Source of the DNA: a virus
DNA: 64,000 nt
IMG/VR virus record: IMGVR_UViG_3300037470_000672
Coordinates: 111,907-175,906 of that record
Strand: one strand, 5' to 3'
Made by a program: the position numbers and the translations under genes
The notes under the pieces: model-generated
What the model saw: the letters and a program-made list of their open reading frames with translations, nothing else
Database searches by the model: none
Told to the model about the DNA's origin: nothing
Part shown: positions 7,833 through 30,488 of the stretch, in pieces
How the letters are laid out: every line of letters starts with the position of its first letter
Position numbering within the stretch: position 1 is the first letter of the stretch

Positions 7833-8579
7833 TTAACCTGTCAGGAAACCAAGCGGGAAGCCGCTGTCAAAAATCTCCTCTTCCAACCGATCTCGCTCCT
7901 CTTGGGCTTGCTCGTACAGCCGGTCTGCGTTGAGCGTGAGCGTACCTTGCGCGGAGGGGTATGCATCGTACTTGCCGCGCACCAGGGACAACGTTCCCTT
8001 GGCTTCGGCCAGTGCTTTGCGTCTGATCAGATCGTGGTCTCGGAACTTCAGGTGCTCCAGGGTGACGCAGTTGGGTTTGTAGAAGATGACCGCCTTTAAC
8101 GGGTTGGAACCCAACGCATCAGAGCTGATCCTATAGACGAGAAAGTAGCTGCGCTCGCCTCGTACCACCTCCCATTCAGGCTCTACCGAGATGATGCGCT
8201 TGGCCATCTCAATGTACTGAAGAGACTGCACGAACGAACTGTAGAGCCCTCCTCCGCGTGGGTTGGCGAAGACGTCGTACGGGATCTTATCCACGAACGC
8301 GAACGGACTGAAAATTGTCGCGAAGTCCAATTCCCGCTCGGCGAACACCACCTCGAAGACAGTGTCAACGTCATCGGGTAGCTCGACGCGCGTTTCGTTC
8401 GGGATCAAGTCTTTCTCTAAGACCCTTTCGATACCCTTCTTGGCGATGAACCACTCGATGGCGTCATCGATGGCGTCGTCGAGCTGCTCCTGTGACAACT
8501 CGACACAGATCAGTGGCCCTCCGAGCTTGCGAAGAAGCCACTGTTCCAGCTCTGCTCGGGTCATCAGCCGCTGGGCCAC
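7833..8579 (-). CDS. Neck protein (T4 gp13-like)
   Basis: RAELEQWLLRKLGGPLICVELSQEQLDDAIDDAIEWF is the gp13-type N-terminus. Confidence 0.85.
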   Translation of the reverse strand: MAQRLMTRAELEQWLLRKLGGPLICVELSQEQLDDAIDDAIEWFIAKKGIERVLEKDLIPNETRVELPDDVDTVFEVVFAERELDFATIFSPFAFVDKIPYDVFANPRGGGLYSSFVQSLQYIEMAKRIISVEPEWEVVRGERSYFLVYRISSDALGSNPLKAVIFYKPNCVTLEHLKFRDHDLIRRKALAEAKGTLSLVRGKYDAYPSAQGTLTLNADRLYEQAQEERDRLEEEIFDSGFPLGFLTG

Positions 8580-8589
8580 AAGCTCTCCT

Positions 8590-8613
8590 GTCTCGGAATT
8601 TCAAAGATCCGAA
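8590..8613 (-). repeat. Solitary CRISPR-like repeat (family A)
   Basis: 22/24 identity to array repeat over the hairpin part; followed directly on minus strand by AGGAGAG and the GTG start at 8579. Confidence 0.8.
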
Positions 8614-8652
8614 CGCTCTTCTGTGCATCCTTTCATCGCTGGGACGACGGGA

Positions 8653-9192
8653 TCAACTCTCCTCGACGTCGAACATCACCTTCAGCAGGTACGCCCGCAG
8701 CTCACCGACGAGTCGGACTTCGGCAGGGATCTCGATCTTGGCGGCGTCCGCCACCGCCTTCAGGTCTTTGCCCGTCATCCCCATCAGGCTGTCCGCCGTG
8801 AGCGCAGATTCCTCAGCCTGCTGTTCTTCTTGCTGCTCTTCCTGCTTCTCGACTTGCTGCTCTTTCGCCCCCTGAGCCTCTGCGTCACCCGCTGCCTTCT
8901 CTTCCTCGCGCGTCTGCGTGACCGGGTCTTCTTGGGGCGGCACAGGGGTCGCGGAGGGGGTAGATGACGCAGCCAGGTCGGGCTCGGTCTTCTTCGCAGG
9001 AGGTGACAGCGCAGGGATCACACGCACGATGGACGGAGCGGGCGGTGTGAACGGCACGAGGAGCTTTCCACCGGCCGGAGTCGCGAACTTCGCCCACTGC
9101 TCGCCAATGAGCACGGCGCCGTCTCGGACGCGACCGTAGCCGGGGACAAACGCCTGCTGGACGTCAGGATTCTTGGTGTACTGATGTTCCAT
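8653..9192 (-). CDS. Hypothetical protein, Q/E-rich linker
   Basis: 179 aa ORF in head operon. Confidence 0.55.
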   Translation of the reverse strand: MEHQYTKNPDVQQAFVPGYGRVRDGAVLIGEQWAKFATPAGGKLLVPFTPPAPSIVRVIPALSPPAKKTEPDLAASSTPSATPVPPQEDPVTQTREEEKAAGDAEAQGAKEQQVEKQEEQQEEQQAEESALTADSLMGMTGKDLKAVADAAKIEIPAEVRLVGELRAYLLKVMFDVEES

Positions 9193-9457
9193 TTGACGAT
9201 GTCTCCTGTTTCTCGTGGGGAACAGCGGCCAGGTCTTCCAAGCCCTGGGCGAGGGCCTTCAGTTCTGCGAGTTGGCCCTCGATGAAGAGTACCTTCTGCT
9301 GGATGCGAAGCGCCACTTGTCGGACGAGTTGGCGGTCTTCATCGGGGAGAGGAGCGGGCGGCGTCTTGCTACGCATCTTCGCGGCCTCGCCCAGGGAGGG
9401 CGCGTTCAGGGCGCCGATGGCGTTCAGCTCGCGCTCGATCTCTTCGGGGGTGGGCAT
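9164..9457 (-). CDS. Hypothetical protein
   Basis: 97 aa ORF with AAGGAG RBS. Confidence 0.55.
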   Translation of the reverse strand: MPTPEEIERELNAIGALNAPSLGEAAKMRSKTPPAPLPDEDRQLVRQVALRIQQKVLFIEGQLAELKALAQGLEDLAAVPHEKQETSSNGTSVHQES

Positions 9458-9537
9458 GAGGAGGCTCCTTGGTCCGACATCCTGGGGCTGGGAAACAGAG
9501 TAGCGCGGGGAGAACGAAGAACCAACCGCCTACTACT

Positions 9538-10566
9538 TCAAACCACATTGGCGAGGACAGAACCCTTTCGGCGCTTGAGGCGCAAGAATTTACGCTCTAG
9601 CCGCAATCCGGGAGCGGTGCCCGTATAGAGCCTACGAGCAACAAGGTCACGAGCGTCACCATTGAACCACACGGTGCGGGCACTGATATAACGTTCTCTG
9701 TCGTCGGTCTCCCACTCGACTTCCTGAATATGCCCTGGTTTCTCGCCGATGAAGTCAAGCAGCCAGTCTAAGAAGAAAGGAGACCCAGATGTAAACGCCA
9801 ATGAGTTACCACGTTTGTTAGCGTGACCGTCCCCATCAAAGCAACCCCGGAGAAAGTGCCATAACAGAGTATCGTCTCGAATCTTTGGCGGCTTCAGTGT
9901 TAGAGATTTTGCCGGGGTTATGCTGTAGTACCTTTCCAGGGCCTCTACCCAATCGACACTACACACATCCAACCAGCTATACACACGACCTGTGTTGTTG
10001 GGTTTGTCCCTTATGGGCTGGTCTAGGGTAGCGAACAGCTTGAGACTTTCGAGAATGCAGCGGTCCTTTGGGTGTACTCCAAAGGCTACAGATCTACGAT
10101 TTTGCGGGACACACCCATCGGCTGCCACGAAGCCGGCGAAGTACGCAGAAACTGGGGTAGGGGTGCGAAAGAAGTCCCGATCGCACTCGGTATACTTTGC
10201 GTACACCCGATCGGGTTTCGCTTCTCGTCCGCTGCGTCGGACGGCTTCTTGGATCCGGCCGAACGAGACCCCAAAGATCGCCCCCACCTCCGCCATGGTC
10301 ATTTTCTCGTTTGCGAAGTACATCTCGACCGCGGCGTCTGTGTCAAAAGTTGGCGGACTCGCTTCGCGATGAGAACGCGTTCGGACGCCTCGCTCCCGTA
10401 ATATCTGACTCACACGCCCTTGGCTTACCCCAAACTCGGCCGCAAGTTGCGCCTGGGTCAGGTTTTTTCCTTCAGCAAGGGCCTGCGTATAGCGGTCAAC
10501 CACGGCCTGGGCCGAGTGGATACGACCTCGTGGTTTGAGGTCTTTACGTCCTTTTGGCCTTCCCAT
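9538..10566 (-). CDS. Free-standing LAGLIDADG homing endonuclease with N-terminal HTH repeats
   Basis: Two motifs AYFAGFVAADGCV and HFLRGCFDGDGH; N-terminal QAQLAAEFGVSQGRVSQIL and MAEVGAIFGVS HTHs. Confidence 0.85.
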   Translation of the reverse strand: MGRPKGRKDLKPRGRIHSAQAVVDRYTQALAEGKNLTQAQLAAEFGVSQGRVSQILRERGVRTRSHREASPPTFDTDAAVEMYFANEKMTMAEVGAIFGVSFGRIQEAVRRSGREAKPDRVYAKYTECDRDFFRTPTPVSAYFAGFVAADGCVPQNRRSVAFGVHPKDRCILESLKLFATLDQPIRDKPNNTGRVYSWLDVCSVDWVEALERYYSITPAKSLTLKPPKIRDDTLLWHFLRGCFDGDGHANKRGNSLAFTSGSPFFLDWLLDFIGEKPGHIQEVEWETDDRERYISARTVWFNGDARDLVARRLYTGTAPGLRLERKFLRLKRRKGSVLANVV

Positions 10567-10600
10567 AGTCGGGCATAGTAGTACATCAGAAGAAGAACGT

Positions 10601-10632
10601 AAAGAAAAGGGCGACCTTAGGCCGCCCTTTTC
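10601..10632 (-). terminator. Intrinsic terminator after the major capsid gene
   Basis: Minus strand GGGCGGCC-TAA-GGTCGCCC followed by TTTTCTTT; A-tract on the other side suggests bidirectional use. Confidence 0.8.
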
Positions 10633-10652
10633 TCAAGCTATCTCTAGCGCGG

Positions 10653-12176
10653 CTAGAGATTTTGCACCCTGATCTGACCGTAGTAGTCAGGGCGGAGGAG
10701 CTTCTTCGCGTACCGGGTCCGCAGACCCTTCCTGAAGCTGAAGTCACTCGGATCCAGGAATGTTGGGGTGACCTGGAGCGGGATGTAGGGCGCCCACACG
10801 AAGCCGGCTTCCAGGAAGTGCATGCCCTTGAGCCCCACCAGCATCTGGTCGGTGCTGAAGAACGGGTCCTCGTAGACGCGCCACTTGTTCATCATGGTGC
10901 CGGTCCGGTAGATGCCGAACTGACCGTGGGTACCCATGGGGCGCGGCAGATCGACCGGAGCGTCGATGGCCATGCCTGCTGAGTACAGGGGCTTGAAGTC
11001 GCCGTGCGTGGTGAGTTGGGCGAACAGGGCCGAGACCTCGGGCGAGGTCACGATGAAGTTCGCCGGCTGCCGCAGGGTCTTCTTGTGGATGGTGTTGGCC
11101 ACGGTCGAGATGACCGTGATCATGGATCGCAGGTGGTCGTGCTCAGTGATGCCAGCGGGTACGGCGCGGTCGAAGACGCCGGTGGTCCCGGTGCTGTTCT
11201 GGAACAGCTCCTGGATGATCTCGCGGTCAATCTCCAAGGAGATCTCTTGCGCCACCGCCGAGACCAACTCGGTCTCCGCATCGATGCCGTGGAAGGCCCG
11301 GAGGTCTTCCGCAGCCTCACTGCTCCACAACGCCTTGAGGCGGCGCGGGACCGCTTCGACGGGCGCCTTGCGGACGTCCAGGTTCACCTGCGGGATCTTG
11401 GTGTTCAGCTCGCCGTCGTAGAAGTAGAACACCTTGATCGAGTTGCCCGCTACCGGCGCAACCGTGAACAGGAACCCGGTGAGCGAGCCGTTGGCGTAGT
11501 TGAGCGAACCGGCGGTCACGTCGCCCGTGAACCCACCCGCGCCGTTGTCCACTGCTTCCTGCACAGTCGCGCCCGCCGAATCCAGCTCGCGGACGGTGAC
11601 CGAGAAGCCGCGCTCTGCGTTGAGCGGACGGACCGGCGTGAAGCCGAGGTTGACGTCCAGACCGGTGCCCACACCACCGAAGGCTGCGCCGTCCCCCACC
11701 GCGGCGATTTCACCGTCGATGAACTCGGACGAGTAGTCGCGGTTGAAGTCGCGTGGGAAGACGTTACCTGCGGTCGTCGACCCCTTGGTCGTGCCGTAGA
11801 TGTAGTCCAGGAAGAAGACGGCGCCGATCGGCGCAGTCATTGGTTGGACAGACACCAGCTCGTGCGCGATGAGGTTGGGAAACACCCTCCGCAAGATCGG
11901 GAAGATGTACTTGGTGAACGGGCCGACGTTGCCACCGCGCGTCTCCTCGTCGATCAGGCGCATGGTCTGTGCATCGACGCCGCGGAGGTGCTGGGACTGG
12001 TTCTCCATGAGCATCGCGGTGAGGCCGAGCACGTACCGCTGCTGCTCGCTGCGATCCGGGATGCCCTCCAGCAGCGCTCCCCACTTGTTGATGCACTGAT
12101 TCACGTAGCCCCGTGCGAGGACCGTACCCTGACGATCCTCCCCCGGGACGCCTTCGACCATCTGTCGCGCTTCCAT
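10653..12176 (-). CDS. Major capsid protein (T4 gp23-like)
   Basis: FPILRRVFPNLIAHELVSVQPMTAP, RRLKALWSSEAAEDLRAFHGIDAETEL, EAGFVWAPYIPL, KGLRTRY. Confidence 0.95.
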   Translation of the reverse strand: MEARQMVEGVPGEDRQGTVLARGYVNQCINKWGALLEGIPDRSEQQRYVLGLTAMLMENQSQHLRGVDAQTMRLIDEETRGGNVGPFTKYIFPILRRVFPNLIAHELVSVQPMTAPIGAVFFLDYIYGTTKGSTTAGNVFPRDFNRDYSSEFIDGEIAAVGDGAAFGGVGTGLDVNLGFTPVRPLNAERGFSVTVRELDSAGATVQEAVDNGAGGFTGDVTAGSLNYANGSLTGFLFTVAPVAGNSIKVFYFYDGELNTKIPQVNLDVRKAPVEAVPRRLKALWSSEAAEDLRAFHGIDAETELVSAVAQEISLEIDREIIQELFQNSTGTTGVFDRAVPAGITEHDHLRSMITVISTVANTIHKKTLRQPANFIVTSPEVSALFAQLTTHGDFKPLYSAGMAIDAPVDLPRPMGTHGQFGIYRTGTMMNKWRVYEDPFFSTDQMLVGLKGMHFLEAGFVWAPYIPLQVTPTFLDPSDFSFRKGLRTRYAKKLLRPDYYGQIRVQNL

Positions 12177-12231
12177 TGTTTCTACTCCTCAGAGGGGTTT
12201 TTGTGGGAGGGGATCTCCCGGGGGTGGCCTG

Positions 12232-14022: not shown

Positions 14023-14200
14023 CGTTCTCGTTTCCAGAACTTGGCTTTGAAGGGACCTCGATCGAGGATGCTGGGCTTCTTCTTGACTTCGCGCTTCTTC
14101 GGTTTGAGCCCCGTCATCAGGTCGCTGACTCCAAGAATCTCCCGCCAGGTACTACGGTAGGCGGTCCGTCGCTTTCGATGACCACCATAACCCTCGTGGA

Positions 14201-15745
14201 TCACTGCGGTCCTGGCTTGCCCTTCTCTTTCGCAGCCCACTGGGCCATCTTCTTGGCGCCGTACTTCTTCTGTCCGATGGCCGCCGCCACCGCTTTGGGA
14301 TCTTGGATGTCGGGGCGCTTCTCCAACTCCTTCGCCAGGGCGGCGAAGCGACCCCCCTTTCCCGTCTCGGAATTCCAAGGATCCGAGCGTCCTTTCAACC
14401 CAAAAGGGGCCTTCTCAGCTTCCATGACGGCCTCCTCGGGGAGAAGGTGCTCGTAGCAGGCTGCGAGAAAGGTGATGTCGTTGTCGTCGATGGATTCCTT
14501 CTTGTAGCCGTTCTTCTTTGCGGCCTTCATCCCCTTGACGACCTTCATCGCCTCATCGCCGGGCATGTTGGCGAGCTTCACACCCATCTCAACCATACCT
14601 TGCACAGCGTCCAGGGTGTCATCCTCGGACATGGTCGCCATGCCGACGAGCTTGTTCTTAAGACCCCTCACGTATGCCGGGATGTCGTCATCGGAGAGCG
14701 ACTCCAGCTTGACGGCGACGCCCTTCATGAGGGCCAAAGCGTCATCGTCCGACAGTCCTTCGAGCGCGCTTGCGGCAAGCGCGATGACAGCCAGGTCTGA
14801 ACCCTCAACCTGGTCCTCCTCCTCCGAGTCGGCGAAGAGGCTCACGTCTTCGATGAGGTCGTCGTAAATCTCCAACATCTCCAGAAACGTGCTGAAGAAG
14901 AGCTTGAAGTCCTCTTCAAATTCCGCCGCGTCGGTGTCGCCCAACTCGTACTCATGCAACGTCTCTGCATAGTCAGCAGCGGTCTCGGCCAGGGCGTTGA
15001 CGGCCTGGCAGAACTCGATGACGCCTTCGCGGATCTCGTCATCCCCCTCCTCATCGAAGAGGTCTGCCTCGACCATCTCGGCGAGGGTCTCCTCGACCGG
15101 GACGAGTTGATGGGCAAGATCGTTGGCAGCCAGCGAGAGCGACGCGAACGCCTGCGTGTTCTCCAACACCTTGGGCGCGAGCGAGACCTTACCGGCTGCC
15201 TCCATCAGATCGTTGAGATCGGCGATCAACGCCGTCAGCGCATCCGCCTCCACCCCTTCCTGTGCAGGCGACGGACGGCGCAACGTGATGCGCTTGACAC
15301 CTGACTTGCGCAGGTGGCCGAGGCGGGACTGCGCTCGCTTGTAGAGGCGCTTGAAGCGTCGGCCCGCGGCCGATCGGCGCCACTTCTTGACCATGCGCTT
15401 CTTGACGGCCTTGACACGGCGGTACTTGCGACGGGCGAGACGTCGTTCACGACGAATCTCAGCGCCGCGCTCCTGTCGCATAATACGTGCGGCTTGCTCA
15501 GACAAGTCCGCCAACTGGTCGTCGTCCAGATCTGCTTGGTCGAGAAGCCGGGAGATCTCCGCCGCGACGCGCGCCACGTCCAGATCGACCACTTCTGCTG
15601 GGTGAGGGTCTTCCTGACGAGTGGAGTCCTCCACGATAGGAGCAGACGGCGGGGGGTTGACGATTCGCTGCACCCTTTCATCATCGCGTACCAACCCGAT
15701 GAGGGCGAAGTCTTCGGCAAGAGAAGAGAGCTTGGGCTGGGTCAC
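14201..15745 (-). CDS. Probable prohead core protein (gp67/gp68-like position)
   Basis: GTG start 15745 with GGAGG RBS overlapping previous stop; very basic R/K block then acidic region; lies between portal and protease. Confidence 0.6.
   Translation of the reverse strand: MTQPKLSSLAEDFALIGLVRDDERVQRIVNPPPSAPIVEDSTRQEDPHPAEVVDLDVARVAAEISRLLDQADLDDDQLADLSEQAARIMRQERGAEIRRERRLARRKYRRVKAVKKRMVKKWRRSAAGRRFKRLYKRAQSRLGHLRKSGVKRITLRRPSPAQEGVEADALTALIADLNDLMEAAGKVSLAPKVLENTQAFASLSLAANDLAHQLVPVEETLAEMVEADLFDEEGDDEIREGVIEFCQAVNALAETAADYAETLHEYELGDTDAAEFEEDFKLFFSTFLEMLEIYDDLIEDVSLFADSEEEDQVEGSDLAVIALAASALEGLSDDDALALMKGVAVKLESLSDDDIPAYVRGLKNKLVGMATMSEDDTLDAVQGMVEMGVKLANMPGDEAMKVVKGMKAAKKNGYKKESIDDNDITFLAACYEHLLPEEAVMEAEKAPFGLKGRSDPWNSETGKGGRFAALAKELEKRPDIQDPKAVAAAIGQKKYGAKKMAQWAAKEKGKPGPQ
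14364..14399 (-). repeat. Full-length CRISPR-like repeat (family A) inserted in frame in a CDS
   Basis: GTCTCGGAATTCCAAGGATCCGAGCGTCCTTTCAAC, 33/36 identical to array repeat; encodes LKGRSDPWNSET. Confidence 0.9.
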
Positions 15746-16656
15746 GGCGAATCCTCCGGACTCACGTCGGCTTGGGCAGCAGCTTCTACAAAACACCGCG
15801 CCACAGAGATTGGAAAGAGAACTTCCGACAGAACGTTGCGAAAATCGGCAAGTGTGTTGACGCTCGCGTCCTGTTGGATTGTGAGCACCTTCTCCGCAGC
15901 GGTACTGACCGTCTCTAGGTGCTCGGACAACTCCACTTGGACCCTGTCCGCGAGGCTATCAGCGCCATCTCGGAATTCCAAAGAACCGAGCGGCCTCGCA
16001 TCCCCAAAGTCGAAGCTGTTGAGCTTGTTGCGCTCATCCCTAAGCATGCGCACCAGGTCTTCAAGATCGGTAACGACCTGCATTCGGTCATCATCGCCGA
16101 CGATGTTCTCGTCTAGCTTTTGGAGCTGACGCTCCTCGATCTCTTTGAGCCCTTTATGCCAACAGGCCCGCTTCAGCGTGTTTTCGTGCTCAACCCACAG
16201 GGAGCGGAAGTCCGACCGCTGGAGGATCTCGGCCTTCGCCTTGAGAACCACTGCGGCCACATCCTGTTTTGCTGGTCGAACAGACTCTACCAGGGAAGCG
16301 AGCCGAAGAGCAGCATCTGGGTCACCGCTGAGCAAGCCCTTCACAACCTGCTCAGCTTCCTCCTGTACAAACGCCTCAAGGTTCTCCTCGGAGTAAACCT
16401 TCAGCGGTACCTGCTCGTGCCCTGTGATCCGCAAATCACCATTGCTGTCCTCATCAAAGCGCACCCTGACAGCCTTCGACGAAGCCGAGAGAACGATGGC
16501 GTGACCAGGGAAGGTTGCCACCACCCGTGTTTCTACCCGCTCACCAAACAACCGGGGCGAGGATTCCTGCACAGCCTCCACAAGCCGCGCAATGAGGTGC
16601 TCAAAACTCCCGTTGCTGAGCTTCCTGATGTCTTCGGTGGCGAGTAAGCTGGTCAT
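15742..16656 (-). CDS. Hypothetical head-morphogenesis protein
   Basis: 304 aa ORF between portal and core gene. Confidence 0.65.
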   Translation of the reverse strand: MTSLLATEDIRKLSNGSFEHLIARLVEAVQESSPRLFGERVETRVVATFPGHAIVLSASSKAVRVRFDEDSNGDLRITGHEQVPLKVYSEENLEAFVQEEAEQVVKGLLSGDPDAALRLASLVESVRPAKQDVAAVVLKAKAEILQRSDFRSLWVEHENTLKRACWHKGLKEIEERQLQKLDENIVGDDDRMQVVTDLEDLVRMLRDERNKLNSFDFGDARPLGSLEFRDGADSLADRVQVELSEHLETVSTAAEKVLTIQQDASVNTLADFRNVLSEVLFPISVARCFVEAAAQADVSPEDSP

Positions 16657-16670: not shown

Positions 16671-16706
16671 GTCTCGGAATTTCAAGGGTCCGAGCATCCT
16701 TTTCTC
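16671..16706 (-). repeat. Solitary CRISPR-like repeat (family A)
   Basis: 29/36 identical to array repeat; fills the portal-stop to next-start gap. Confidence 0.85.
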
Positions 16707-16711
16707 CTGCG

Positions 16712-19700
16712 TCAGGTGCCTCTCCTTACGCTTATCTCCTGCGTCAGGTGCCGTAGTTCTTCAAGACGGCGGGCCAAGTCCTTGTCGTTTTTCAACAAGC
16801 GATCGAGCTTTTCGCTAGCCCTCTTCTCCGCTTCACGGTCGCCCGCAAATAGCTGTCGTTCCGATATACCACTACCCTTAGAAGGGGGCAAGCTACCAGA
16901 AACTCTGTCTGAAACGTACTTCCCACGGGACGCACGAGTAGACTCCGGAACCCCTTCCGGTGCAGGTTCTGTCGCCTGGGCTTGAATCTGCGCTGCCTTA
17001 GCCTCTTGCCGTGCTTGGGATTCGGCCTCTTGTTCCCGCTGCTTCATGATGGTTTGAATGGCGTCGTCGTTCATCCCAAAAATCGTGGACAGTATCCAGT
17101 AGGCGGACACAAACTCCCTCATCCGCCCCGCCAGGTCGGCCCGCGCGTTCATCACCTCCACCTGCGCCAGCTCGAAAATAGCTGACGGGACGGTCATGTG
17201 AGTAGTGAAGGGTGCCTGCGCAGGGTCGATGCCCAACGCCGCCAGGTGTACGCGACCGATCTTGTGCGTACCGTTGATGATCTGCCGCTGCACCCTGAGA
17301 ACCGTGCGCGCGAAGCGCACATCCTGGCTGGATAGGATGTTCCGGACTACACCCTCTTCCTGACCAAGGTACGCCTTGGGGATCTTGATTGATGCCCATA
17401 GCTTATTCTTAAAGTAGTCAACATCATCAATCGCTTGCCACTGCGGTCCTTGAAGTACCTCTATTCTAGAGCCTTCCTGACCCTTTCTAACAGGCACGTA
17501 GAAATCTTCGTCTTGGCCAAAAGCGTTGTATCTAACATCCAGCTTTCCGGTGCCTGCGTTGAAGAACTTCTTCTTGCGGTGCTGCTGGCGTACGTTATTG
17601 ACGTGAGCCATAGCCTCCCTTGGAGGGAGGTCCCCAACGTCCACATAGAAGACCCGTCGCTCCGGCGACCGTCGTAGACGGTACACAAGCATGGAGTCTT
17701 CTAACAAAATCAGGCGTTTGTAGAGCCAGCGAGCGGACTCCAGGACCGAGTTGTGAACCACAACACCGTCAGCCACAAAGTTGTGTTCCGGATCGGCTAC
17801 TTCGATGTCGTAGACCGGTTCCTCCCCTTGCATTTCAATTGAGAGTATCTTCTCCTCAGCAAAATCAGCTCCCTCGGCGATAGGCGTCTCATTGAAGGTG
17901 AGGAGGTACTGACGACCGGAATGAATGACGTCCGTCGTTGGATGGGTAGCGATGGGGTTATCTCGCGGCTCTCGCTCCCGGATGCGCCCGGATTTCCAGC
18001 CCAACCCGTCGACCAGCGTCTTTATATCTCGCACCAAGTCTCTGTTACAAAGCTCGATGTGGTGGTCTTTATGGCTGCGTGTGTCCCAACCATCCGCATC
18101 CATGAAACCGTGCAGGAGCGCGAGCCGGATTTCTTCGGGAGCCCCAAAAACCCAATACGGAAGACGCTTCGCGTGTGCCCCGCCGTCTACCCAACCGAGT
18201 TTGCGGAAAAGTGCCGCAAGCGCTTGGCTTGAGACGTAGCTCTGGGTCTCATCCGGCAAGGTGCTAACAGGTAGTCCAGTGCTTGCGAGGAGTCCCTCGT
18301 AAAAAGAGTTACGATCGGGGTATTCCCCGCGAGCGAAGTACACTTGCCCGTCTGTAATCCACCCGTCTCCTAGGAGAAACCCCCACAACCGAGCAAAATC
18401 AGGCGTAACAAAATCAGGGAGAGTGATCCTCTCATCCTCTATCTTGGGTTCAAAAGCACCGTAGAAAAACGGCACTTTCACCTCACAAAAGAGATCACGC
18501 AGTACGGGCAACGGAACCGATGACTGTCCTTTAAGCAAACTTTCCAAAGTTCCGCGAGCGATACCCAACTTAGCGGCTAGGGGCCGGAGACCCTCATCCT
18601 TGGGCGTATACCGCCCTATACGGGACGCCGCCCTAAGCGCGCTAGCGCCGCGCTCCGTGAGTCGTACAGGACCCTCCTCCTCTATCTCACGTAGGTGTAA
18701 CCCAAGCGGCGGCGGCGGGTTCGTATCCGGCATTCGGGTGGTGATAACGATCCGATCCCCCTCCTGTAGCTCGCACAGCGGTTTCCAAGCGTTTCGTCCC
18801 CCCCTACCCTTCCCTACTGCTAAAAGAGGGTGCTCCGCTGTAAGGCAAAGCTCTCGGTGCTTCGTACGAACCCGATAGACGGTCTTCGTCCCAGAGCAGA
18901 CATGGTCAAGCACCCTCGTCGTTCGGAGCTTTCCTGCGTGCCGCAAAAGAACGCGCTGGCCTGGTTGGATGTCGGATATCGGCCTCGGCCCTTCCGTCGT
19001 CCAAACTTGCGAACCCCCCGCGAGACAGTGCCCGTAAACAGAGCGCCTGAACTTGCTGTGCAGTCGGAAGTGAGCGATCTCCCAATCCTCGAACACCGGG
19101 TTTGGACCCGTGTCCTGCGATGCAAGATTCGAGGTGTCAGAAAAACCATCTTGGCCGCCGCCGGGGAGGGAGGTCGCGTTCTGGCCGTATCGGTTGACGA
19201 GGAGCTTGCGGTAATCCTCGGGCGTGAAGTCAAACCGCCCCTTGAAGTCTTGGATGAATCCTAGAAGCTGCCCTTTAGGGCCTTCGATTCGCCGCATGGT
19301 CGCAGGTGGGAGGTAGTTGATACCTTCTACCCCATTCTGGGTAACAAGTATCTCCTCAAAGTTCGATCCGTACTTGCAAGCTGTACGAGCGATGGACCAT
19401 ATCTCGTCTTCGTACCTCAAAGTCTTGAAGTAGAGGTCGTCAACAATCTCTTGGACTGTTCGATCAGGAGAGGTTATCCAGAGCGATCGCTTGAGCTGTG
19501 TGTCGGGTTGTGTTACATCATCGGCGTAAATATCGATCGCGGAGTTGTGTACAAACACCCCCTCACAGGCGAAATTCTGGTAGACCGGTACCTCGATATC
19601 GTACACATCCTCGACACCGTCGGGCTCTACACGTACCACCATGTGGTTGTTGTAGTCGTCTTCCCCTTCTTTCGGACCGGTAAGCGACGATCCAAGCATA

Positions 19701-20839
19701 TAGCGACCTAAGCCGTACTGCTGCATACGTCGAACAAGAGTATTCCAACTTACATTCAGGTTACGCGCCGCTTCCGAAAGCGAGGATGACGCCCTGACAG
19801 CCGCTTCCACTGAGTCTCGTGCCAGCGGAATAGTATGGCTTTGCGCAATCGCCTGACGGTGCGCTTCGGACAGACATCCTGTCGGTGGCGGGTTGTTGCA
19901 GGAAACGTCTGGAAGGCTCGTAGACCGCTGCTGTGCGCGAACCCACTTCAATTTCTCACGAGGGTTGTTCCAGCGTTTTTTGGCAGCTTCTCGGATCTTA
20001 GCGCGGACTTCCGGGCGCTTGGTTATCTCGTGTATGCGGGAATGCTCTGCTCGCGTCTCAACGGAGAGGTTACCAGGATGAGGGTTTGTCTTGTCTCCGT
20101 CTCTGTGATGGACAACAAAACCTTCCGGAATCGGTCCGCTCAGTAGAACCTCCTCAGCCATCCGCCGATGCAGGTACTCTCTGCGGAGTCGACCCTTCCC
20201 CCAAGGATCCGTGACCATCAGGTAGCCGTTCTTCTCTACGCGAGCCGAGAGCGGCATCAACCGTTCCTTAGGCTCAAGCGCCCCTGCGGTCTTGTAACTG
20301 CCATCCCTAAGCATGAAGAGATGGTTAGCCGTGCATCTGATCGACCAGCGCCTCTTTTCCTTTCCGGGCTGCGCCCGGTACTCCTCGAACGTGACCTTGA
20401 AAACCGGTACGCGACTGCCGGTTTTCGTCGGACCTACAGCTTCGGCTGGGACTACTCTCTGGCGCCTCAGATCAGCCGCTAACACGTAGAACTTCTGATC
20501 TGGATTCTCAGACCGCCATCGAAGCAACTCCTCGATGGTGCGATAACCAGTGCCTTCTGGCAGCACCGTGTAGACTCTAGAAGTTCCGCATAGACAAGCT
20601 ATTTCGCCGTAGTCGTCCATCTCTTCGTAATCAATGTATCGTGAAACGAGGTCTTGATCGAGCTTAAGATACTGTGAAACAGTGTCGTAGCCGTGGATAG
20701 AGAAAAGGTCCGCAGGACGACCTCGGGGGAAGACGTCCCCCTTGGCAATTTCGACCGGAGCTTGCTCAGGATCGTTCCGCCACGACCGGCGGACACGATT
20801 TGCCACTCCGTTTACGAAACCTTCAAAAAGTCCTGCCAC
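16712..20839 (-). CDS. Portal protein (T4 gp20-like) containing two inteins
   Basis: YEEMDDYGEIA/SAIDIYADD, WEIAHFRL, LEDSMLVYRLRRSPERRVFYVDVGDLP, EDFYVP, DDVDYFKNKL; about 598 aa after removing inteins. Confidence 0.95.
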   Translation of the reverse strand: MAGLFEGFVNGVANRVRRSWRNDPEQAPVEIAKGDVFPRGRPADLFSIHGYDTVSQYLKLDQDLVSRYIDYEEMDDYGEIACLCGTSRVYTVLPEGTGYRTIEELLRWRSENPDQKFYVLAADLRRQRVVPAEAVGPTKTGSRVPVFKVTFEEYRAQPGKEKRRWSIRCTANHLFMLRDGSYKTAGALEPKERLMPLSARVEKNGYLMVTDPWGKGRLRREYLHRRMAEEVLLSGPIPEGFVVHHRDGDKTNPHPGNLSVETRAEHSRIHEITKRPEVRAKIREAAKKRWNNPREKLKWVRAQQRSTSLPDVSCNNPPPTGCLSEAHRQAIAQSHTIPLARDSVEAAVRASSSLSEAARNLNVSWNTLVRRMQQYGLGRYMLGSSLTGPKEGEDDYNNHMVVRVEPDGVEDVYDIEVPVYQNFACEGVFVHNSAIDIYADDVTQPDTQLKRSLWITSPDRTVQEIVDDLYFKTLRYEDEIWSIARTACKYGSNFEEILVTQNGVEGINYLPPATMRRIEGPKGQLLGFIQDFKGRFDFTPEDYRKLLVNRYGQNATSLPGGGQDGFSDTSNLASQDTGPNPVFEDWEIAHFRLHSKFRRSVYGHCLAGGSQVWTTEGPRPISDIQPGQRVLLRHAGKLRTTRVLDHVCSGTKTVYRVRTKHRELCLTAEHPLLAVGKGRGGRNAWKPLCELQEGDRIVITTRMPDTNPPPPLGLHLREIEEEGPVRLTERGASALRAASRIGRYTPKDEGLRPLAAKLGIARGTLESLLKGQSSVPLPVLRDLFCEVKVPFFYGAFEPKIEDERITLPDFVTPDFARLWGFLLGDGWITDGQVYFARGEYPDRNSFYEGLLASTGLPVSTLPDETQSYVSSQALAALFRKLGWVDGGAHAKRLPYWVFGAPEEIRLALLHGFMDADGWDTRSHKDHHIELCNRDLVRDIKTLVDGLGWKSGRIREREPRDNPIATHPTTDVIHSGRQYLLTFNETPIAEGADFAEEKILSIEMQGEEPVYDIEVADPEHNFVADGVVVHNSVLESARWLYKRLILLEDSMLVYRLRRSPERRVFYVDVGDLPPREAMAHVNNVRQQHRKKKFFNAGTGKLDVRYNAFGQDEDFYVPVRKGQEGSRIEVLQGPQWQAIDDVDYFKNKLWASIKIPKAYLGQEEGVVRNILSSQDVRFARTVLRVQRQIINGTHKIGRVHLAALGIDPAQAPFTTHMTVPSAIFELAQVEVMNARADLAGRMREFVSAYWILSTIFGMNDDAIQTIMKQREQEAESQARQEAKAAQIQAQATEPAPEGVPESTRASRGKYVSDRVSGSLPPSKGSGISERQLFAGDREAEKRASEKLDRLLKNDKDLARRLEELRHLTQEISVRRGT
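17750..19027 (-). mobile_element. Intein 2 in portal, with LAGLIDADG endonuclease (426 aa)
   Basis: Starts CLAGGSQV, ends NFVADGVVVHN then Ser; LWGFLLGDGW and LLHGFMDADGW. Confidence 0.92.
19544..20596 (-). mobile_element. Intein 1 in portal, with HNH endonuclease (351 aa)
   Basis: Starts CLCGTSRV, TANHLF block B, ends NFACEGVFVHN then Ser; YLHRRMAEE..VVHHRDGDKTNPHPGNL HNH motif. Confidence 0.92.
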
Positions 20840-24865: not shown

Positions 24866-24882
24866 CCGGGGTGAGTCGTCTG

Positions 24883-25179: not shown

Positions 25180-25189
25180 GCCGGACTCC

Positions 25190-27043
25190 TCAGTGGACGG
25201 ATGCCCACGTCTTACCACTCGCCGGGTCCACGACAACCGGAACCCGCTTCAGAAACTGCTCCATCGATTCCTTCATCCCCGCCTGAAGGTCTTGCTTGAC
25301 TGCATCCACCAGCTCTGGATCGTCTTTGCACTCGACGGTGATCTCATCGTGGACGTGGTGCACAATACCTTTTACGTCACCTCCGTACTTCTTTAGAAGA
25401 AGGTGAACGTTGCGAAGGGAGGATTTCAAAGCGTCGGCGGCCGTCCCTTGGATCGGGGTATTCAGCAGCTCATTATGCTGGTGTTCGCTTACGAACCTGC
25501 GACGTCCTGATAGGGTACGCACTTCTCCGAGACGAGCGCCCTCGCGTAGCTGGAAATCGTGCCAGGAGGCTATCCCCGAATAGGCGCCGAAGTAACGCTT
25601 GTGGAAGGTCTTTGCCTGGGCAAGCGTCATGTTCACGCCATAGTTAGCCTTGGCGTAAATGACAAGTTTCTCAGGCATCATTCCGAATACCAGTCCAAAG
25701 TTGATGGGCTTTGCCTGTTGCCTTTCTTCCTTGGTAATCTGGTCCTCTGGTTTACCACTAACAATCGACGCTGTGAACCTATGCGCGTCTTTCGCTTCCT
25801 GGAAGACGCGGATGAGTGTCTCATCGCCGGATATCTCCGCAGCGATGCACATCTCGATTCCGCTATAGTCAGCGGCTACGAGAATGTTCCCTGGTTCAGC
25901 TTCAAAACAGTCCCGGTATGCAGCATCCCGAGGAACGTTATGTAGTTGGGGCGCGCTTGTTGCGTAGCGACCAGTAGCAGTAAACGGAAAGAAGTGGGTG
26001 TGAACCCTACCAGTAATAGAGTTGATGTGTTCAAGGTACGCTGGTCCGAACGACTTAACCCGCTGATTGTACCCTCTGTACTCCAGGATAGGCGGTATAC
26101 AATCGTACTTGTCCGCCACCTGAGCGAGGAGCAGCTCGTTGGTTCCGATGGTCTTGGTCTTGCCTGTTTTGCGATCGGTATAGGTGTCACCGATGAGCTG
26201 AATCTGTCCGCTGGGAGACGGGACTCTCACCCCTAGGCTACGTAGCGCCTTGCCCATCTGCTGTGTGGAATCCACGTTCCACGGTGCGACCAGGCCGGGG
26301 AGGCTGAGCATACCGGAGGGGTGGGGAAGGATCTTCAACAGCGCATCACGACATGCTTTGCGCTTGAGAAAGTTATTCTCGTACAGGGCAACCCACTTGT
26401 GACGGTTGAGGAAAAAACCGGTGTTCTCGATGGCCGCTTCGGGGAGACAGGCTCCAAACTCGATGAGCGCGACCCGAATGAGCCCCGCTTCAACAAGCTT
26501 CTGCTTGAGCACGTCGCGTAGCTCATGCAACCAACCAACGTCCTCCGCGGCGTAGTCGAGCTGGCGTTTGCTCAGCTCGGGGGCGCTCCAGTCGGAGCCG
26601 CCCATCATAACCTTGGAAGGGGTGCACCCGAGAGGTTGCAGCTCACGGTTGTAGAGGGCATCGAGGTTGTGGGAGACATTCACCCACCCGTTGTAGAGGA
26701 GAGAGCTTGCGCGGAACGGGTCGAAGACAGGCCACAGCTCGACGTTGTGGTGGTGGAGGAACCACGCTTGCTCGAAGCGAGCGTTCTGGATGACCTTGAT
26801 GGTGGGGGAGGCGATGGCGCGGATGAGGGGGTTGAGGGCTTCTTTGGGAACCTTGAAGCAGTCGACGACGTAGATCTTCTCACCGGTGCTCACCTGGATG
26901 AGGCGGATCTGCCCCTCGAACGCCTTGAAGGCTGTCGTCTCGATGTCGAGGCCGATGACCGGCGCAGCTTCCACCTCACGAGCGATCTGAGGGATCAGAT
27001 CAGGCGTCGTGACGTAGGTGTACTCACCGGTGTAGACCATCAC
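25190..27043 (-). CDS. polA: Family A DNA polymerase (3'-5' exonuclease + polymerase, no 5' nuclease)
   Basis: IGLDIETT, QNARFE, YAAEDV exo motifs; VAADYSGIE, RQQAKPINFGLVFG, NTPIQGTAAD, VHDEI. Confidence 0.95.
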   Translation of the reverse strand: MMVYTGEYTYVTTPDLIPQIAREVEAAPVIGLDIETTAFKAFEGQIRLIQVSTGEKIYVVDCFKVPKEALNPLIRAIASPTIKVIQNARFEQAWFLHHHNVELWPVFDPFRASSLLYNGWVNVSHNLDALYNRELQPLGCTPSKVMMGGSDWSAPELSKRQLDYAAEDVGWLHELRDVLKQKLVEAGLIRVALIEFGACLPEAAIENTGFFLNRHKWVALYENNFLKRKACRDALLKILPHPSGMLSLPGLVAPWNVDSTQQMGKALRSLGVRVPSPSGQIQLIGDTYTDRKTGKTKTIGTNELLLAQVADKYDCIPPILEYRGYNQRVKSFGPAYLEHINSITGRVHTHFFPFTATGRYATSAPQLHNVPRDAAYRDCFEAEPGNILVAADYSGIEMCIAAEISGDETLIRVFQEAKDAHRFTASIVSGKPEDQITKEERQQAKPINFGLVFGMMPEKLVIYAKANYGVNMTLAQAKTFHKRYFGAYSGIASWHDFQLREGARLGEVRTLSGRRRFVSEHQHNELLNTPIQGTAADALKSSLRNVHLLLKKYGGDVKGIVHHVHDEITVECKDDPELVDAVKQDLQAGMKESMEQFLKRVPVVVDPASGKTWASVH

Positions 27044-27300
27044 TCACCTCGGACGTCTTCCTCGTTGGGAGGCTCCTCTTTCTCATGACGATGCGTAATG
27101 ACTACGTGTCCTCTTTCCCCCTCTGGCGCTTTCTCGAAACCCAGTTCGATGTGGCGTACCCCTCCCTCCTCTGAGCGGGGAAGCGTCCACCTGGCAGCCA
27201 TCTCCGCGCGATCGATCATCGCGCCGAGGCTCTTCCCATCACCTTTGCGGACAGGGAACTTCACGGAGAGCTTGTCGCCCTTGCTCTGGTCTTCTGTCAT
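27040..27300 (-). CDS. Hypothetical protein
   Basis: 86 aa ORF with overlapping start/stop on both sides. Confidence 0.55.
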   Translation of the reverse strand: MTEDQSKGDKLSVKFPVRKGDGKSLGAMIDRAEMAARWTLPRSEEGGVRHIELGFEKAPEGERGHVVITHRHEKEEPPNEEDVRGE

Positions 27301-28106
27301 GCCTCGGCCTCTTCTTCCTCCCCTTCTTGGGGGACCTCCTGGTCCCGTAGCTGGTCCACGAATCCTCTCAACATCGGCCCCATGAGGAGGTTGATGTTAG
27401 TCATCCGCTCCTCGGTGATGGTGATCAGCTCGTGCATTGCTTCGCGGGACTCGGGGGTCATGGCGATGTAGATCTGTTCTTGCCCGCCGAAGCTGAACAC
27501 CATGAAACCGTGCGCCAAGCTGGCACCATGCTTCTTCATGATGTGGTTGATGATCTTCCCGATGTCCGACCCTGGGGAGGCTCCCTGGATCGCCTTGTCG
27601 ATGGCTGAACCGACATCCCCTTTACCCGCGTCCCCCAAGGCTTTCTTGACGCCACTGGCGACCTGCTTGGTGAGCGCCTTCCACGCAGCCTGGTCTGTGA
27701 ACGCCAACAGTTTCTTGAGTTGGTCCTCCGAGTATCGGAGGCGCATGTCGGCGTAGAGACGGGCAAACTTGGCGGGGTTGATCTTACCTCTGAGGTTGAG
27801 GCGGAAGGTCATGAACTTCTGGAGGTCTTGGTCATCAAACGCATCGCCCAGGACAATACAGGGGATGGTCTTTAGGCCCACCTCCTTGGCCGCCATCCAG
27901 CGGTGCTGCCCGCCCAGGATGACAAACAACCCACCTTGCGTGCCGGCAACATGGATGGGGTCGATGAAACCGTGCTCGCGAATCTCATCACAGAGCGCCT
28001 CAAACGTTGAGCTGGACTCCTCGTAGGGGTTCCAATCGTTCGGGCGAATCTGCTCAACGGGGACGTACCGGAGGTCTAGCGTTTGATCGCCGGCAGGTTT
28101 GCTCAT
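27297..28106 (-). CDS. ParB/Srx-like N-terminal domain protein
   Basis: YVPVEQIRPNDWNP, IREHGFIDPIHV, ILGGQHRWMAAKEVG (GxxRxxA). Confidence 0.85.
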   Translation of the reverse strand: MSKPAGDQTLDLRYVPVEQIRPNDWNPYEESSSTFEALCDEIREHGFIDPIHVAGTQGGLFVILGGQHRWMAAKEVGLKTIPCIVLGDAFDDQDLQKFMTFRLNLRGKINPAKFARLYADMRLRYSEDQLKKLLAFTDQAAWKALTKQVASGVKKALGDAGKGDVGSAIDKAIQGASPGSDIGKIINHIMKKHGASLAHGFMVFSFGGQEQIYIAMTPESREAMHELITITEERMTNINLLMGPMLRGFVDQLRDQEVPQEGEEEEAEA

Positions 28107-28137
28107 AACCAGTTTCTACCATCTAGTCCGCAGATTG

Positions 28138-28392
28138 TCAGCCTAGATCGGCGTTCAGGATGGTCGTAAGTGTTTCGCACTTCCCCGACACGAGGAGAAG
28201 CTCTCCTGAGAGCTTCTCGTAGAACTCGGCCGGGTTTCGCGGAGCTTCCGGGTTGTCGAGGCCCGTAGACCCGTCCACCTGGTAGTCTTCGCCAGGGACG
28301 CCGTCCGCGAGCGCAGCGACCCACTTGGTCAGGATATCCCGAGCGGTCTGGACCTCCTTGAGGACCAAGGACTGTGAGACGTTACGCATCAA
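28138..28392 (-). CDS. Hypothetical protein
   Basis: 84 aa ORF, coupled to upstream gene. Confidence 0.5.
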   Translation of the reverse strand: MMRNVSQSLVLKEVQTARDILTKWVAALADGVPGEDYQVDGSTGLDNPEAPRNPAEFYEKLSGELLLVSGKCETLTTILNADLG

Positions 28393-29321
28393 CCGGCCGC
28401 CTCAACCTCAACCTCGTCGTCTTGATCGAGCTTGTTGAGGGCTTCGAGGTGCTGGAAGCCGTAGATGATCTTCTCTTCCCTCGGCGCGGAAGGGTCGATG
28501 ACGACGAGGTTGAGCCCGAAGAACATGCCGATCTTGTGCAGCATGCCGATCTTCGTAGCCTTGTCTAGCTTCTCGAAGGCATTGGTGGCGAGGAACTCGG
28601 TACAGACGAGGTCGAGTAGCTGACCATCGTTCGCCTTACCTTTCTTCCAGCCGGTGATCTCTCTTGCGCGTTCGATAGCCTGCTCGACGTTCTCGTGCTG
28701 GCCGTCGTAGAAGAAGTAGGTCTTCTGGACGCACACCTTCGGATCTGGCAGCACATCCTGCTTTGCCTCTTCTCGGGCGGCTTTCGCTTCTTTGGCAGAC
28801 CCACCTTGCCCACGGATGCGGTTGTACTCGGCGGTCACCTTCTGGAAAGCCTCGGTGATCTCGACAATGAGGAAGTCATAGTTGACCTTCTCCGCCTTTT
28901 GGATCCAATCCTGCGCCGTCTCGGCCGTCATGATTCGGACCAACTCGCGGACCTTGGCGTATCCGAGCTGGATGAGCCTCTCCTCCCAGTCCTTGGGTAG
29001 GTTCATGCCGCCGTCTTCGACGTAGAGCCTGTACCAGATCCCTTTGAGGTACTCCGCCTTACGACCGCTGAGCCCCAGCTCCTTCTGAGCGTACTCAGTG
29101 AAAGTGCTGTAACCCCAGGACATGTAAATACCCGCGCGAAGGGGGTTGCCGTCGATGGGCGTGTCGTAGACCTCCCACAGGTACTTGGCCAACCGCATGT
29201 AGCCGGTGTCCATGTCCCGAGCGAGTTTGCGAGCTTCCCTGCGGATGTAGGTAGCCCACTCCTTCGACCCTTTCGTGCTCTTGGAGCTTTTCTTCCCGCC
29301 GTCGACCACTTCCAGCGCCAC
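28389..29321 (-). CDS. Hypothetical DNA-binding protein
   Basis: GYSTFTEYAQKELGLSGRKAEYL HTH-like segment; GGGAGG RBS. Confidence 0.6.
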   Translation of the reverse strand: MALEVVDGGKKSSKSTKGSKEWATYIRREARKLARDMDTGYMRLAKYLWEVYDTPIDGNPLRAGIYMSWGYSTFTEYAQKELGLSGRKAEYLKGIWYRLYVEDGGMNLPKDWEERLIQLGYAKVRELVRIMTAETAQDWIQKAEKVNYDFLIVEITEAFQKVTAEYNRIRGQGGSAKEAKAAREEAKQDVLPDPKVCVQKTYFFYDGQHENVEQAIERAREITGWKKGKANDGQLLDLVCTEFLATNAFEKLDKATKIGMLHKIGMFFGLNLVVIDPSAPREEKIIYGFQHLEALNKLDQDDEVEVEAAG

Positions 29322-29332
29322 GGTTACCTCCC

Positions 29333-29368
29333 ATCTCGGAATTTCAAAGATCCGAGAGCCGTTTCCAT
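29333..29368 (-). repeat. Solitary CRISPR-like repeat (family A)
   Basis: 28/36 identical, stem intact; followed on minus strand directly by GGGAGGT RBS and GTG 29321. Confidence 0.85.
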
Positions 29369-29413
29369 GATGACGTACACCCCTCGCTTGAGGGAGTCAC
29401 GACAGATTTTTCA

Positions 29414-29977
29414 TCAGCCCTTCCCCGTAACCATCTTGCGAGCCATGCGAATCACGTCACTGTCCAGACTGGCTACCACGCTACCTAGCGCATCGTACGG
29501 GTGCTCCCACTTACCCTTGGGTAAGCCCTCTAAGAGGGGGGTAAGTTGATACTCAAACATCTCGTCTAGTGCCGTCTGCACTTGGTCTTTGCTGGCGTTG
29601 TTTGCGCCACACAGCTTCTTCTTGATCGCTTGTGGGCTCACTTGATTAACCGGGAGATTATTCTCCGTTACCAAAGCACCGATGATGCCCCAACTACGCC
29701 CAATGAGCTGACAGCTTCGATTGTTGCGTGGCCAAGAAGCCCCCTCCAACGTAACAACCTCCACGCCATCGAATTTCGGGAGGAGAAAGCTGGCGATTTC
29801 TCGTGTACGTCTGAAGTCATCGTCCCCTGAGAGAAACTTCAGTTTCTTGTCGCTCTTCTTAGTCTCGACACAACCCATTGCTACAGGCACAACACGGTCT
29901 GGCCACAGATCGCAGCGACACCAGCCGAGCTTGGCTAGTCCGAGATCGAGGCCAAGCACCGTTACCGAACGACTCAC
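29414..29977 (-). CDS. ruvC: RuvC-like Holliday junction resolvase
   Basis: VLGLDLGLAKLGW, VTLEG, IKKKLCGANNASKDQV, YDALG acidic tetrad. Confidence 0.9.
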   Translation of the reverse strand: MSRSVTVLGLDLGLAKLGWCRCDLWPDRVVPVAMGCVETKKSDKKLKFLSGDDDFRRTREIASFLLPKFDGVEVVTLEGASWPRNNRSCQLIGRSWGIIGALVTENNLPVNQVSPQAIKKKLCGANNASKDQVQTALDEMFEYQLTPLLEGLPKGKWEHPYDALGSVVASLDSDVIRMARKMVTGKG

Positions 29978-30441
29978 GGATTGTCCTCATCAAGAATATT
30001 GCCGGCATCTTCGGTGACGCGGGTAGTGATCTGTTCGACCAGCCGATCTTGACGAGAAAAAGCGATCGAGGTGGCTACCACCGAACCAACAACACGTTGC
30101 GCGTCTGCTTCTTCCGTTAGCTGACCATCTCGCTTGCGGAAGATCTTCCCGACCTCGCTCTCTACATCCTTGATGAAGTTCTTCACCTTGGTGCGATGAC
30201 CGCGAAAAAGCACCGAGCAATGAAGCGTGCACACCGAGCACATCGGTACCAACTCGGCCTTCCCGGCTTCCACTTGCTCGACAACCTGCGCAGGCGTAGG
30301 AGGAACCTCCCAAAAGGCGGGTCGAGGGCAGACCGAACAAGTAGGGCGCGGTTCGCGCTTCTCGACGAAGAAACTCTCCGGGGGGAGAGGTCGACAAGCT
30401 CCCGGGTTGATCATCAAAGGCTTCTTGTGACGCCGCGTCAA
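29974..30441 (-). CDS. Hypothetical zinc-finger protein
   Basis: CSVC twice; TTG start after GGAGG RBS. Confidence 0.55.
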   Translation of the reverse strand: MTRRHKKPLMINPGACRPLPPESFFVEKREPRPTCSVCPRPAFWEVPPTPAQVVEQVEAGKAELVPMCSVCTLHCSVLFRGHRTKVKNFIKDVESEVGKIFRKRDGQLTEEADAQRVVGSVVATSIAFSRQDRLVEQITTRVTEDAGNILDEDNP

Positions 30442-30452
30442 CCGTCCTCCCC

Positions 30453-30488
30453 TTCTCGGAATTTCAAGGATCCGAGCATCCGTTCAAC
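30453..30488 (-). repeat. Solitary CRISPR-like repeat (family A)
   Basis: 31/36 identical; its 5' GTTGAA contains the stop codon of the Cas4-like gene, its 3' end abuts GGGGAGG RBS. Confidence 0.9.

Follow-up and report, generated by a model that had tools for sequence, protein, structure and literature searches.

The DNA analysed here, referred to as the window, comprises 64,000 nt (bases 111907-175906) of the 175,906-bp IMG/VR record IMGVR_UViG_3300037470_000672, a phage genome contained in many metagenomes, from soil and sediment. Nearly all genes of the window are carried by the minus strand, and the recognisable products include a tail sheath, a head-tail adaptor, a portal, a family A DNA polymerase, a RecA-like protein and a helicase. 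Dispersed among these genes is a 36-nt repeat which, in the minus-strand reading, begins with GTTGAAA at its 5' end, contains a stem of the form CTCGGA...TCCGAG and finishes with AC at its 3' end. [quoted passage not shown]

The repeat family is non-random, with 29 copies in the 176-kb genome (non-redundant, the overlapping contig ends having been removed) and 0 hits for a reversed-pattern control. In the genome as a whole there are one array of six repeats and two mini-arrays; a further two copies form a convergent pair, 16 stand alone and three are degenerate. Within the window there are nine full solitary copies, two degenerate ones and the last two repeats of the array. They are given below in window positions, each copy being named afterwards by its lower coordinate; where a Shine-Dalgarno (SD) motif and a start codon follow, the distance from the repeat end to that codon is stated.

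1183-1207, minus strand: degenerate copy with stem II and the terminal AC retained; GGAGAG, ATG after 13 nt
8590-8625, minus strand: solitary repeat with a divergent 5' half; AGGAGAG, GTG after 10 nt
14364-14399, minus strand: intact repeat within open reading frame (ORF) 14201-15796, read through in frame 2, 53 codons ahead of the ORF stop
15967-16002, minus strand: repeat within ORF 15742-16656, read through in frame 1
16671-16706, minus strand: solitary repeat, 5 nt past the portal gene stop; ATG after 14 nt, no SD
29333-29368, minus strand: solitary repeat; GGGAGGT, GTG after 11 nt; 3' end AT, not AC
30453-30488, minus strand: solitary repeat; GGGGAGG, TTG after 11 nt; 3' end AA, not AC
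33881-33916, minus strand: solitary repeat; GGGAGGG, TTG of the RecA-like gene after 26 nt
36793-36809, minus strand: degenerate copy with the loop deleted, the remnant being stem II and the terminal AC
51488-51523, minus strand: solitary repeat; GGAGGAG, ATG after 21 nt; 3' end GC, not AC
54549-54584, minus strand: solitary repeat, 5 nt past the upstream stop; next start after 46 nt
63861-63974, minus strand: two identical 36-nt repeats of the main array (63939-63974 and 63861-63896) with one spacer

An earlier note on this DNA had listed seven repeats standing close to ribosome-binding sites, and all seven are present on the minus strand with the SD motifs and gaps that it gave (10, 11, 11, 13, 14, 21 and 26 nt), the repeat at 16671 being without an SD; because the SD is absent there, the start codon that follows is uncertain. 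A second, better match to the 5' half of the repeat (GATGAAAGGATG) lies on the minus strand at 8626-8650, just upstream of copy 8590, so that this copy looks like a repeat with a 12-nt insertion and not like one with a diverged 5' half. The convergent pair (genome 62486-62597) comprises two copies on opposite strands, 40 nt apart, at the place where plus- and minus-strand gene blocks converge, and each copy's guide would be the complement of the other's downstream segment.

The earlier note had also predicted a cognate Cas protein, and one is encoded by the phage. The cas12m gene (genome 56196-57974) lies outside the window, 56 kb away, and likewise 56 kb from the main array; its full-length product of 592 amino acids aligns with the solved Cas12m 23vw_A over residues 18-544, nearly its whole length, with an E value of 2e-80. 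The protein contains a Cas12f1-like TNB domain, has 282 homologues and, in the alignment to 23vw_A, shows an acidic D-E-D pattern at the three presumed RuvC motifs. A mini-array of three repeats begins 23 nt past the cas12m stop. The main array has six repeats at a spacing of 73-78 nt and spans the contig ends (genome 159-419 together with the two window repeats), which overlap within it; Cas1 is absent from the phage. By its effector, array and scaffold the phage system belongs to type V-M, the scaffold being judged from sequence, and the 36-nt repeat is its CRISPR repeat.

Two side observations concern the main array. The spacer order differs between the contig ends: at one of them spacer 5 comes straight after spacer 1, and the other has the full series of spacers 1-5. 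Either the population contains a variant of the array or the assembly has collapsed it. Eleven co-directional tRNA genes (genome 600-4586, minus strand) lead straight into the array, whose first repeat is at genome 419, and transcription of this tRNA operon may extend through the array as its last part.

Cas12m is known to bind DNA without cutting it and to silence by this binding (PMC11013384, PMC10442227). Pre-crRNA is cleaved by the protein itself, immediately upstream of the scaffold, and a 17-nt guide is kept (PMC10442227, PMC11013384). The scaffold derives from a 36-nt repeat and consists of a stem and a pseudoknot; the protein reads C(-1) and a G·A pair base-specifically, and in the solved complex nucleotides -36 to -30 are disordered and 17 nt of the guide are paired (PMC11013384, PMC10442227). 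In the phage repeat, stem I is formed by positions 6-10 with 19-23 and stem II by positions 13-18 with 29-34, G12 lies opposite A35 and C36 is terminal. The 6-bp stem II is preceded by the G, its 3' strand occupies positions -8 to -3 and is followed by A and C, and with stem I nested the whole gives an H-type pseudoknot. This build matches the MmCas12m2 crRNA (PMC10442227), the comparison being one of sequences only. The same V-M scaffold signature is found in 25 of 30 distinct repeats of phage Cas12m systems, the stem sequences of which differ. Support for the fold comes from the comparison across systems and from the solved structure rather than from covariation within the genome.

The copies outside the main array, 23 in number, are not uniformly conserved. 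Non-consensus bases make up 5.6% of positions 13-36 and 21% of positions 1-12 (Fisher p 4e-11); that is, the 24 nt which match the ordered scaffold of the Cas12m crRNA are about four times better conserved than the 12 nt at the 5' side. In the scaffold 92% of the cells are paired, and pair 8:21 alternates between A-U and G-C among copies. This pattern points to selection acting on the scaffold part of the copies. The orientation is one-sided as well: 22 of these 23 copies lie on the gene strand (minus; p 3e-6), and the sole plus-strand copy follows a small block of plus-strand genes. Since strand matches that of the local genes in every case, the plus-strand copy included, all copies are sense-oriented in transcripts.

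Being intergenic and co-oriented with genes, the copies might be thought to be Cas-independent intercistronic hairpins, serving as terminators, RNase III sites, stabilisers of messenger RNA (mRNA) or promoters, and the repeat does begin with TTGAAA, a hexamer resembling a -35 box. Yet the sequence is identical to that of the CRISPR repeat beside cas12m, and the -35-like part is the least conserved. No sigma-70-like promoter (-35/-10 with 16-18 nt spacing) was called overlapping any copy, with the proviso that phage promoters may differ, and no intrinsic terminator was called at the copies, the minus strand at 29333, 30453 and 33881 specifically being without one; the promoter or terminator reading was rejected on these grounds. 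The stem is just 6 bp and the free hairpin is weak, with z-scores of the minimum free energy near 0 and no better than shuffled sequence, so that a stable hairpin was rejected as well. Further, a separate family of GC-rich palindromes in this phage already resembles phage terminators. A Cas-independent role is therefore extremely unlikely. With a weak hairpin and no promoter or terminator called, any effect of the copies needs a protein.

The distances between the copies and the neighbouring codons were then considered; the gaps to start codons at the junctions were curated by eye, as automatic choice of the start is unreliable at several of them. Of 19 copies that precede a gene, eight end no more than 14 nt from the start. 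Against uniform placement over all intergenic positions this proximity has p 3e-8, and p 0.008 if every intergenic region is made equally likely; the gene calls behind both nulls are crude and make the intergenic regions too long. Within the intergenic gap that each copy occupies, and with 10 nt reserved for the SD, the copies are not significantly skewed towards the start (Fisher combined p 0.29) or, on the same conditioning, towards the stop (p 0.69). The significance of the spacing thus depends on the null model. The copies abut an upstream stop about as often as an SD: the repeat begins 4-5 nt past the stop at 16671, 33881 and 54549, and at 30453 and genome 34346 the upstream stop is a TGA supplied by the first five bases of the repeat itself (positions 3-5 in the case of 30453). 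The earlier list had omitted copies that do not fit, namely 14364 and 15967, which lie in ORFs, and 54549, which is 46 nt from a start. Its proposal that the spacing reflects selection for coupling to translation initiation is consequently not established, given the gap-conditioned result, the copies that abut stops and those within ORFs. The tight spacing arises mostly from the placing of a 36-nt element in very short intergenic gaps, where it is necessarily upstream of the SD; it has a mechanistic consequence, yet is not in itself evidence of selection.

The same observations bear on the idea that the copies are a selfish or neutral repeat, dispersed by recombination or another route of insertion and surviving where the harm is small, with the closeness to codons following from a compact genome. 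In two of its three frames the repeat can be translated, as happens at 15967 and 14364, and the third gives TGA, which serves as a stop at 30453 and genome 34346; all three frame outcomes thus occur, as dispersal would allow. The lack of skew within the local gap fits it too, as does a copy number that ranges from 0 to more than 20 among Cas12m phages. It does not account for the fourfold lower divergence of the part contacted by Cas12m, nor for the sense orientation of all copies, since antisense copies should be favoured if binding of Cas12m were merely harmful; and the same pattern is found in a phage with an unrelated repeat sequence. Selfish or neutral dispersal is accordingly regarded as rather improbable.

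The best reading of the copies, to which a probability of roughly 0.45 is given, is that Cas12m binds and processes the phage's mRNAs at these sites. Cas12m made by the phage would recognise each copy on the nascent message, cleave there at the position known from pre-crRNA, just ahead of the scaffold on its upstream side, and remain on the new 5' end. The cut would separate the upstream cistron from the downstream one, and the protein would hold the next 17-20 nt or so as a guide segment. If this segment takes in the SD and start codon, the bound message should not initiate, being closed to the 30S subunit; this would apply at 8590, 29333, 30453 and 1183, perhaps at 16671, and at three sites outside the window. 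At a longer gap the outcome would be mainly processing and a 5' end capped by protein. A ribosome that terminates within a few nucleotides of a copy, or that reads through one, would melt the scaffold; access of Cas12m could in this way depend on translation upstream, and the tolerance of copies inside ORFs may have its explanation here. Occlusion of the ribosome site and cleavage into separate messages, both suggested in the earlier note, are therefore physically plausible for a protein that binds the scaffold and cuts upstream of it, the SD and start codon falling at the tight junctions in the first 17 nt, the stretch that Cas12m would keep as guide; the selection that the note had drawn from the spacing does not follow.

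Besides the missing skew towards the start, a number of observations weigh against processing by Cas12m. Covariation within the genome is weak, the observed level being reached by 44 of 500 shuffles. The two tightest junctions (29333, with T, and 30453, with A) are without C(-1), one of the bases which Cas12m reads specifically. At two sites an intact copy is part of an ORF, and a cut there would destroy the messages of structural genes. For about half of the copies the nearest start is 34 nt to about 200 nt away, or the copy lies in a tRNA or non-coding region, and the SDs beside repeats are of ordinary strength (p 0.19). The crRNAs of the arrays would compete with the self guides for Cas12m, a cost which the model leaves unexplained. 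Two further points come from related phages: in a complete 110-kb phage (G001) the copies are intergenic, 23-86 nt from starts, and do not hug ribosome-binding sites, and whole-record scans of five other jumbo phage records with Cas12m gave no solitary copies.

The genes that stand directly behind the copies are in part identifiable, and those immediately concerned are as follows.

7833-8579, minus strand: head-tail adaptor gene (phrog_211, E 3.6e-14, match from residue 3), directly downstream of repeat 8590
28389-29321, minus strand: gene of 310 amino acids with no function assigned, downstream of repeat 29333
29974-30441, minus strand: gene of 155 amino acids with no function assigned, downstream of repeat 30453
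32151-33854, minus strand: RecA-like gene (PF00154, E 6e-28), downstream of repeat 33881

The match of the adaptor protein from residue 3 supports the start codon at 8579. The earlier note had placed neck, recombination and regulatory genes under the proposed control; a name could be given only to the head-tail adaptor and the RecA-like gene, and no regulatory gene was among these.

A different role for the same complexes would be the making of guides. Each solitary repeat could be a crRNA gene with one guide. The phage sequence downstream would then be its fixed spacer, and Cas12m loaded with this RNA would bind and silence the corresponding locus of co-infecting relatives in which the insert is missing; the locus of the phage itself would be safe, because the end of the repeat occupies the place of the protospacer adjacent motif (PAM). 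Type V effectors need only repeat and spacer, Cas12m silences through DNA binding, and an alternative way to make guides would be useful to a phage without Cas1. Copies inside ORFs make sense as guide makers. Release of a small RNA would also be expected for several copies that have non-coding or tRNA surroundings, and those which fit best are a solitary repeat at genome 874-909, between tRNA-Tyr and tRNA-Phe, and another copy about 70 nt past tRNA-Ser. But a guide that begins with an SD and spacer would cover poorly conserved sequence, the 5' flanks of the copies have no common PAM-like motif, the downstream segments have no convincing second match in the genome or in the collections searched, and no phage relative was found for comparison. 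In more detail, no relative with the same repeat was found in IMG/VR, and none through a search with the head-tail adaptor protein; in JGI metagenomes the repeat gave one chance hit without homology. The repeat core has no exact match in 185,579 GTDB species genomes. Spacers and repeat-adjacent segments gave chance-level matches only (14-18 nt) against the phage's own genome, and in cultured phages a single match of 25/27, which overlaps the repeat itself. Spacer 1 has no exact match in IMG/VR and the segment after the copy at genome 40098 none in GTDB. Contigs of four DNA runs contained the same phage only, at low depth, and the copies showed neither insertion nor deletion polymorphism; apparent joints in these contigs proved to be array contigs mapping onto two solitary copies. 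That the copies are guide genes is unlikely, though not negligibly so.

TnpB, the ancestor of Cas12, uses an omega-RNA, a scaffold whose guide is the flanking DNA. The logic of the guide gene is alike, with the differences that no transposon ends or TnpA were found here and that the other flank of the copies has no conserved motif. In crRNA-like regulatory RNAs and mini-arrays, too, repeats have been co-opted for regulation via a Cas effector (bioRxiv 10.1101/2023.03.03.530964). Those regulators work at the level of DNA, with guides that show partial complementarity to promoters, and form part of cas loci, unlike the phage copies, which are found genome-wide at gene junctions; since no complementarity exceeds the chance level of 14-18 nt, the copies are not regulators of this promoter-targeting kind.

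The copies could also be decoys: scaffolds on abundant messages which soak up Cas12m with harmless guides, whether the Cas12m is that of the host, that of a rival phage or the phage's own, its level then being buffered. Solitary repeats of viruses are known to act in this way (PMC10651486), and the copies are numerous and sense-oriented with a conserved scaffold. Against this, the cognate effector and its arrays are encoded by the phage itself, the repeat core has no exact match in the bacterial genomes of the GTDB species set and no promoter belonging to a copy was called. RNA anti-CRISPRs (Racrs) as so far described occur apart from cas genes, and the one that has been characterised is a lone small RNA transcribed from its own promoter. 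What the copies share with Racrs (PMC10651486) is that individual CRISPR repeats, carried by a virus, are expected, as RNA, to be bound by a Cas protein. A Racr mimics host repeats and its element has no cas genes; the present phage has a cognate cas12m with arrays, and its 16 solitary and three degenerate copies are embedded in messages. Because the effector is in the phage and no sigma-70-like promoter was called at the copies, two of which lie in tRNA transcripts, they are not Racrs as described, and a decoy function is considered very unlikely.

Processing of messages by Cas12m also has a precedent in kind. At the intercistronic RNase III sites of phage T7, and at engineered Csy4 sites, a dedicated RNase cuts a hairpin between genes, which yields separate messages and sets the context of the ribosome-binding site. 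Apart from the different enzyme, a cut of the Cas12 type would leave structure and protein on the downstream 5' end, on top of the ribosome-binding site; with the protein retained there, repression is predicted instead of insulation.

Solitary copies are not confined to this genome. Cas12m relatives are encoded by 62 viral loci in IMG/VR, most of which have an adjacent array of 36-nt repeats. In whole-record scans, the 110-kb phage mentioned above, whose Cas12m is 33% identical and whose repeat is unrelated in sequence, has eight solitary copies, two of them just upstream of cas12m, and a 202-kb phage (G002) has three. Scattered copies occur also in loci of about 21 kb (L051, L071 and L096). 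As copies recur in other phages, and at longer distances in the 110-kb phage, the genome studied here is an extreme case, and closeness to ribosome-binding sites is not general. Two other phages have a repeat pair upstream of the cas12m start, at 34 nt (L096:9897-9966) and at 86-122 nt (L037:9750-9854), which suggests autoregulation; the genome studied here has no such pair upstream of cas12m.

The type V-M systems of MmCas12m2, GoCas12m and MsCas12m (PMC10442227, PMC11013384) resemble that of the phage in an effector of about 600 amino acids, a scaffold from a 36-nt repeat, the G·A pair, the terminal C, an array beside the gene and the lack of adaptation genes. They differ in that the present system is phage-borne, that a distance of 56 kb separates the effector from its main array, which a tRNA operon feeds, and that more than 20 repeat copies stand outside arrays, in operons; the activity of its own enzyme is predicted only. 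Comparable in setting is the Cas12m of myxophage MV-1 (bioRxiv 10.64898/2026.09.14.751636), which is phage-encoded with an adjacent array, without cas1, cas2 or cas4, and for whose spacers no targets were found. Solitary repeats are not mentioned in that report, the only one on a phage Cas12m to be found, which calls its Cas12m the first in a phage; contrary to this claim of the 2026 preprint, the 62 IMG/VR loci indicate that phage Cas12m is common. In the literature no description was found of CRISPR repeats dispersed in the operons of a phage that encodes the Cas protein. The pattern, a phage Cas12m together with conserved, sense-oriented scaffold copies in the phage's own transcripts, is real, recurrent and, as far as was found, undescribed.

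Some further features of the window may be recorded. The portal gene (16712-20839, minus strand) encodes 1375 amino acids, of which residues 1030-1291 match portal proteins, and its product contains an HNH endonuclease domain at about residues 197-370; this region could be a fusion or an intein-like insertion. A gene for a Holliday junction resolvase of the RuvC family (29414-29977, minus strand) lies between the two tightest junctions, 29333 and 30453, in a replication and recombination module that also contains the DNA polymerase A, the RecA-like gene and the helicase. The GC-rich palindromes form a second repeat family, unrelated to the CRISPR repeat, of about 20 nt with the core GCCCGTACGGGC and six copies (12361, 20865, 36731, 44147, 52386 and 62006); they may be bidirectional terminators or protein-binding sites.

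A wider proposal is that a DNA-binding CRISPR effector has here been turned into an RNA-binding post-transcriptional regulator, which would cut operon messages, close the ribosome-binding sites of a dozen or more genes and possibly also supply guides against insert-lacking relatives; taken as a whole this is doubtful and is put forward tentatively. The phage offers a simple test system, with one protein of 592 amino acids, a 36-nt scaffold and natural junctions graded from 10 to 46 nt, and such a mechanism, if true, would suggest a compact programmable tool for RNA processing and the control of translation. On a conservative reading it still follows that Cas12m is common in phages and that a solitary repeat in a viral genome need not imitate one of the host. 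If processing by Cas12m is true, a virus would be using a CRISPR effector to process or gate its own mRNAs, a role not described for any Cas12, and the copies would show one route by which CRISPR repeats pass out of arrays and into gene regulation.

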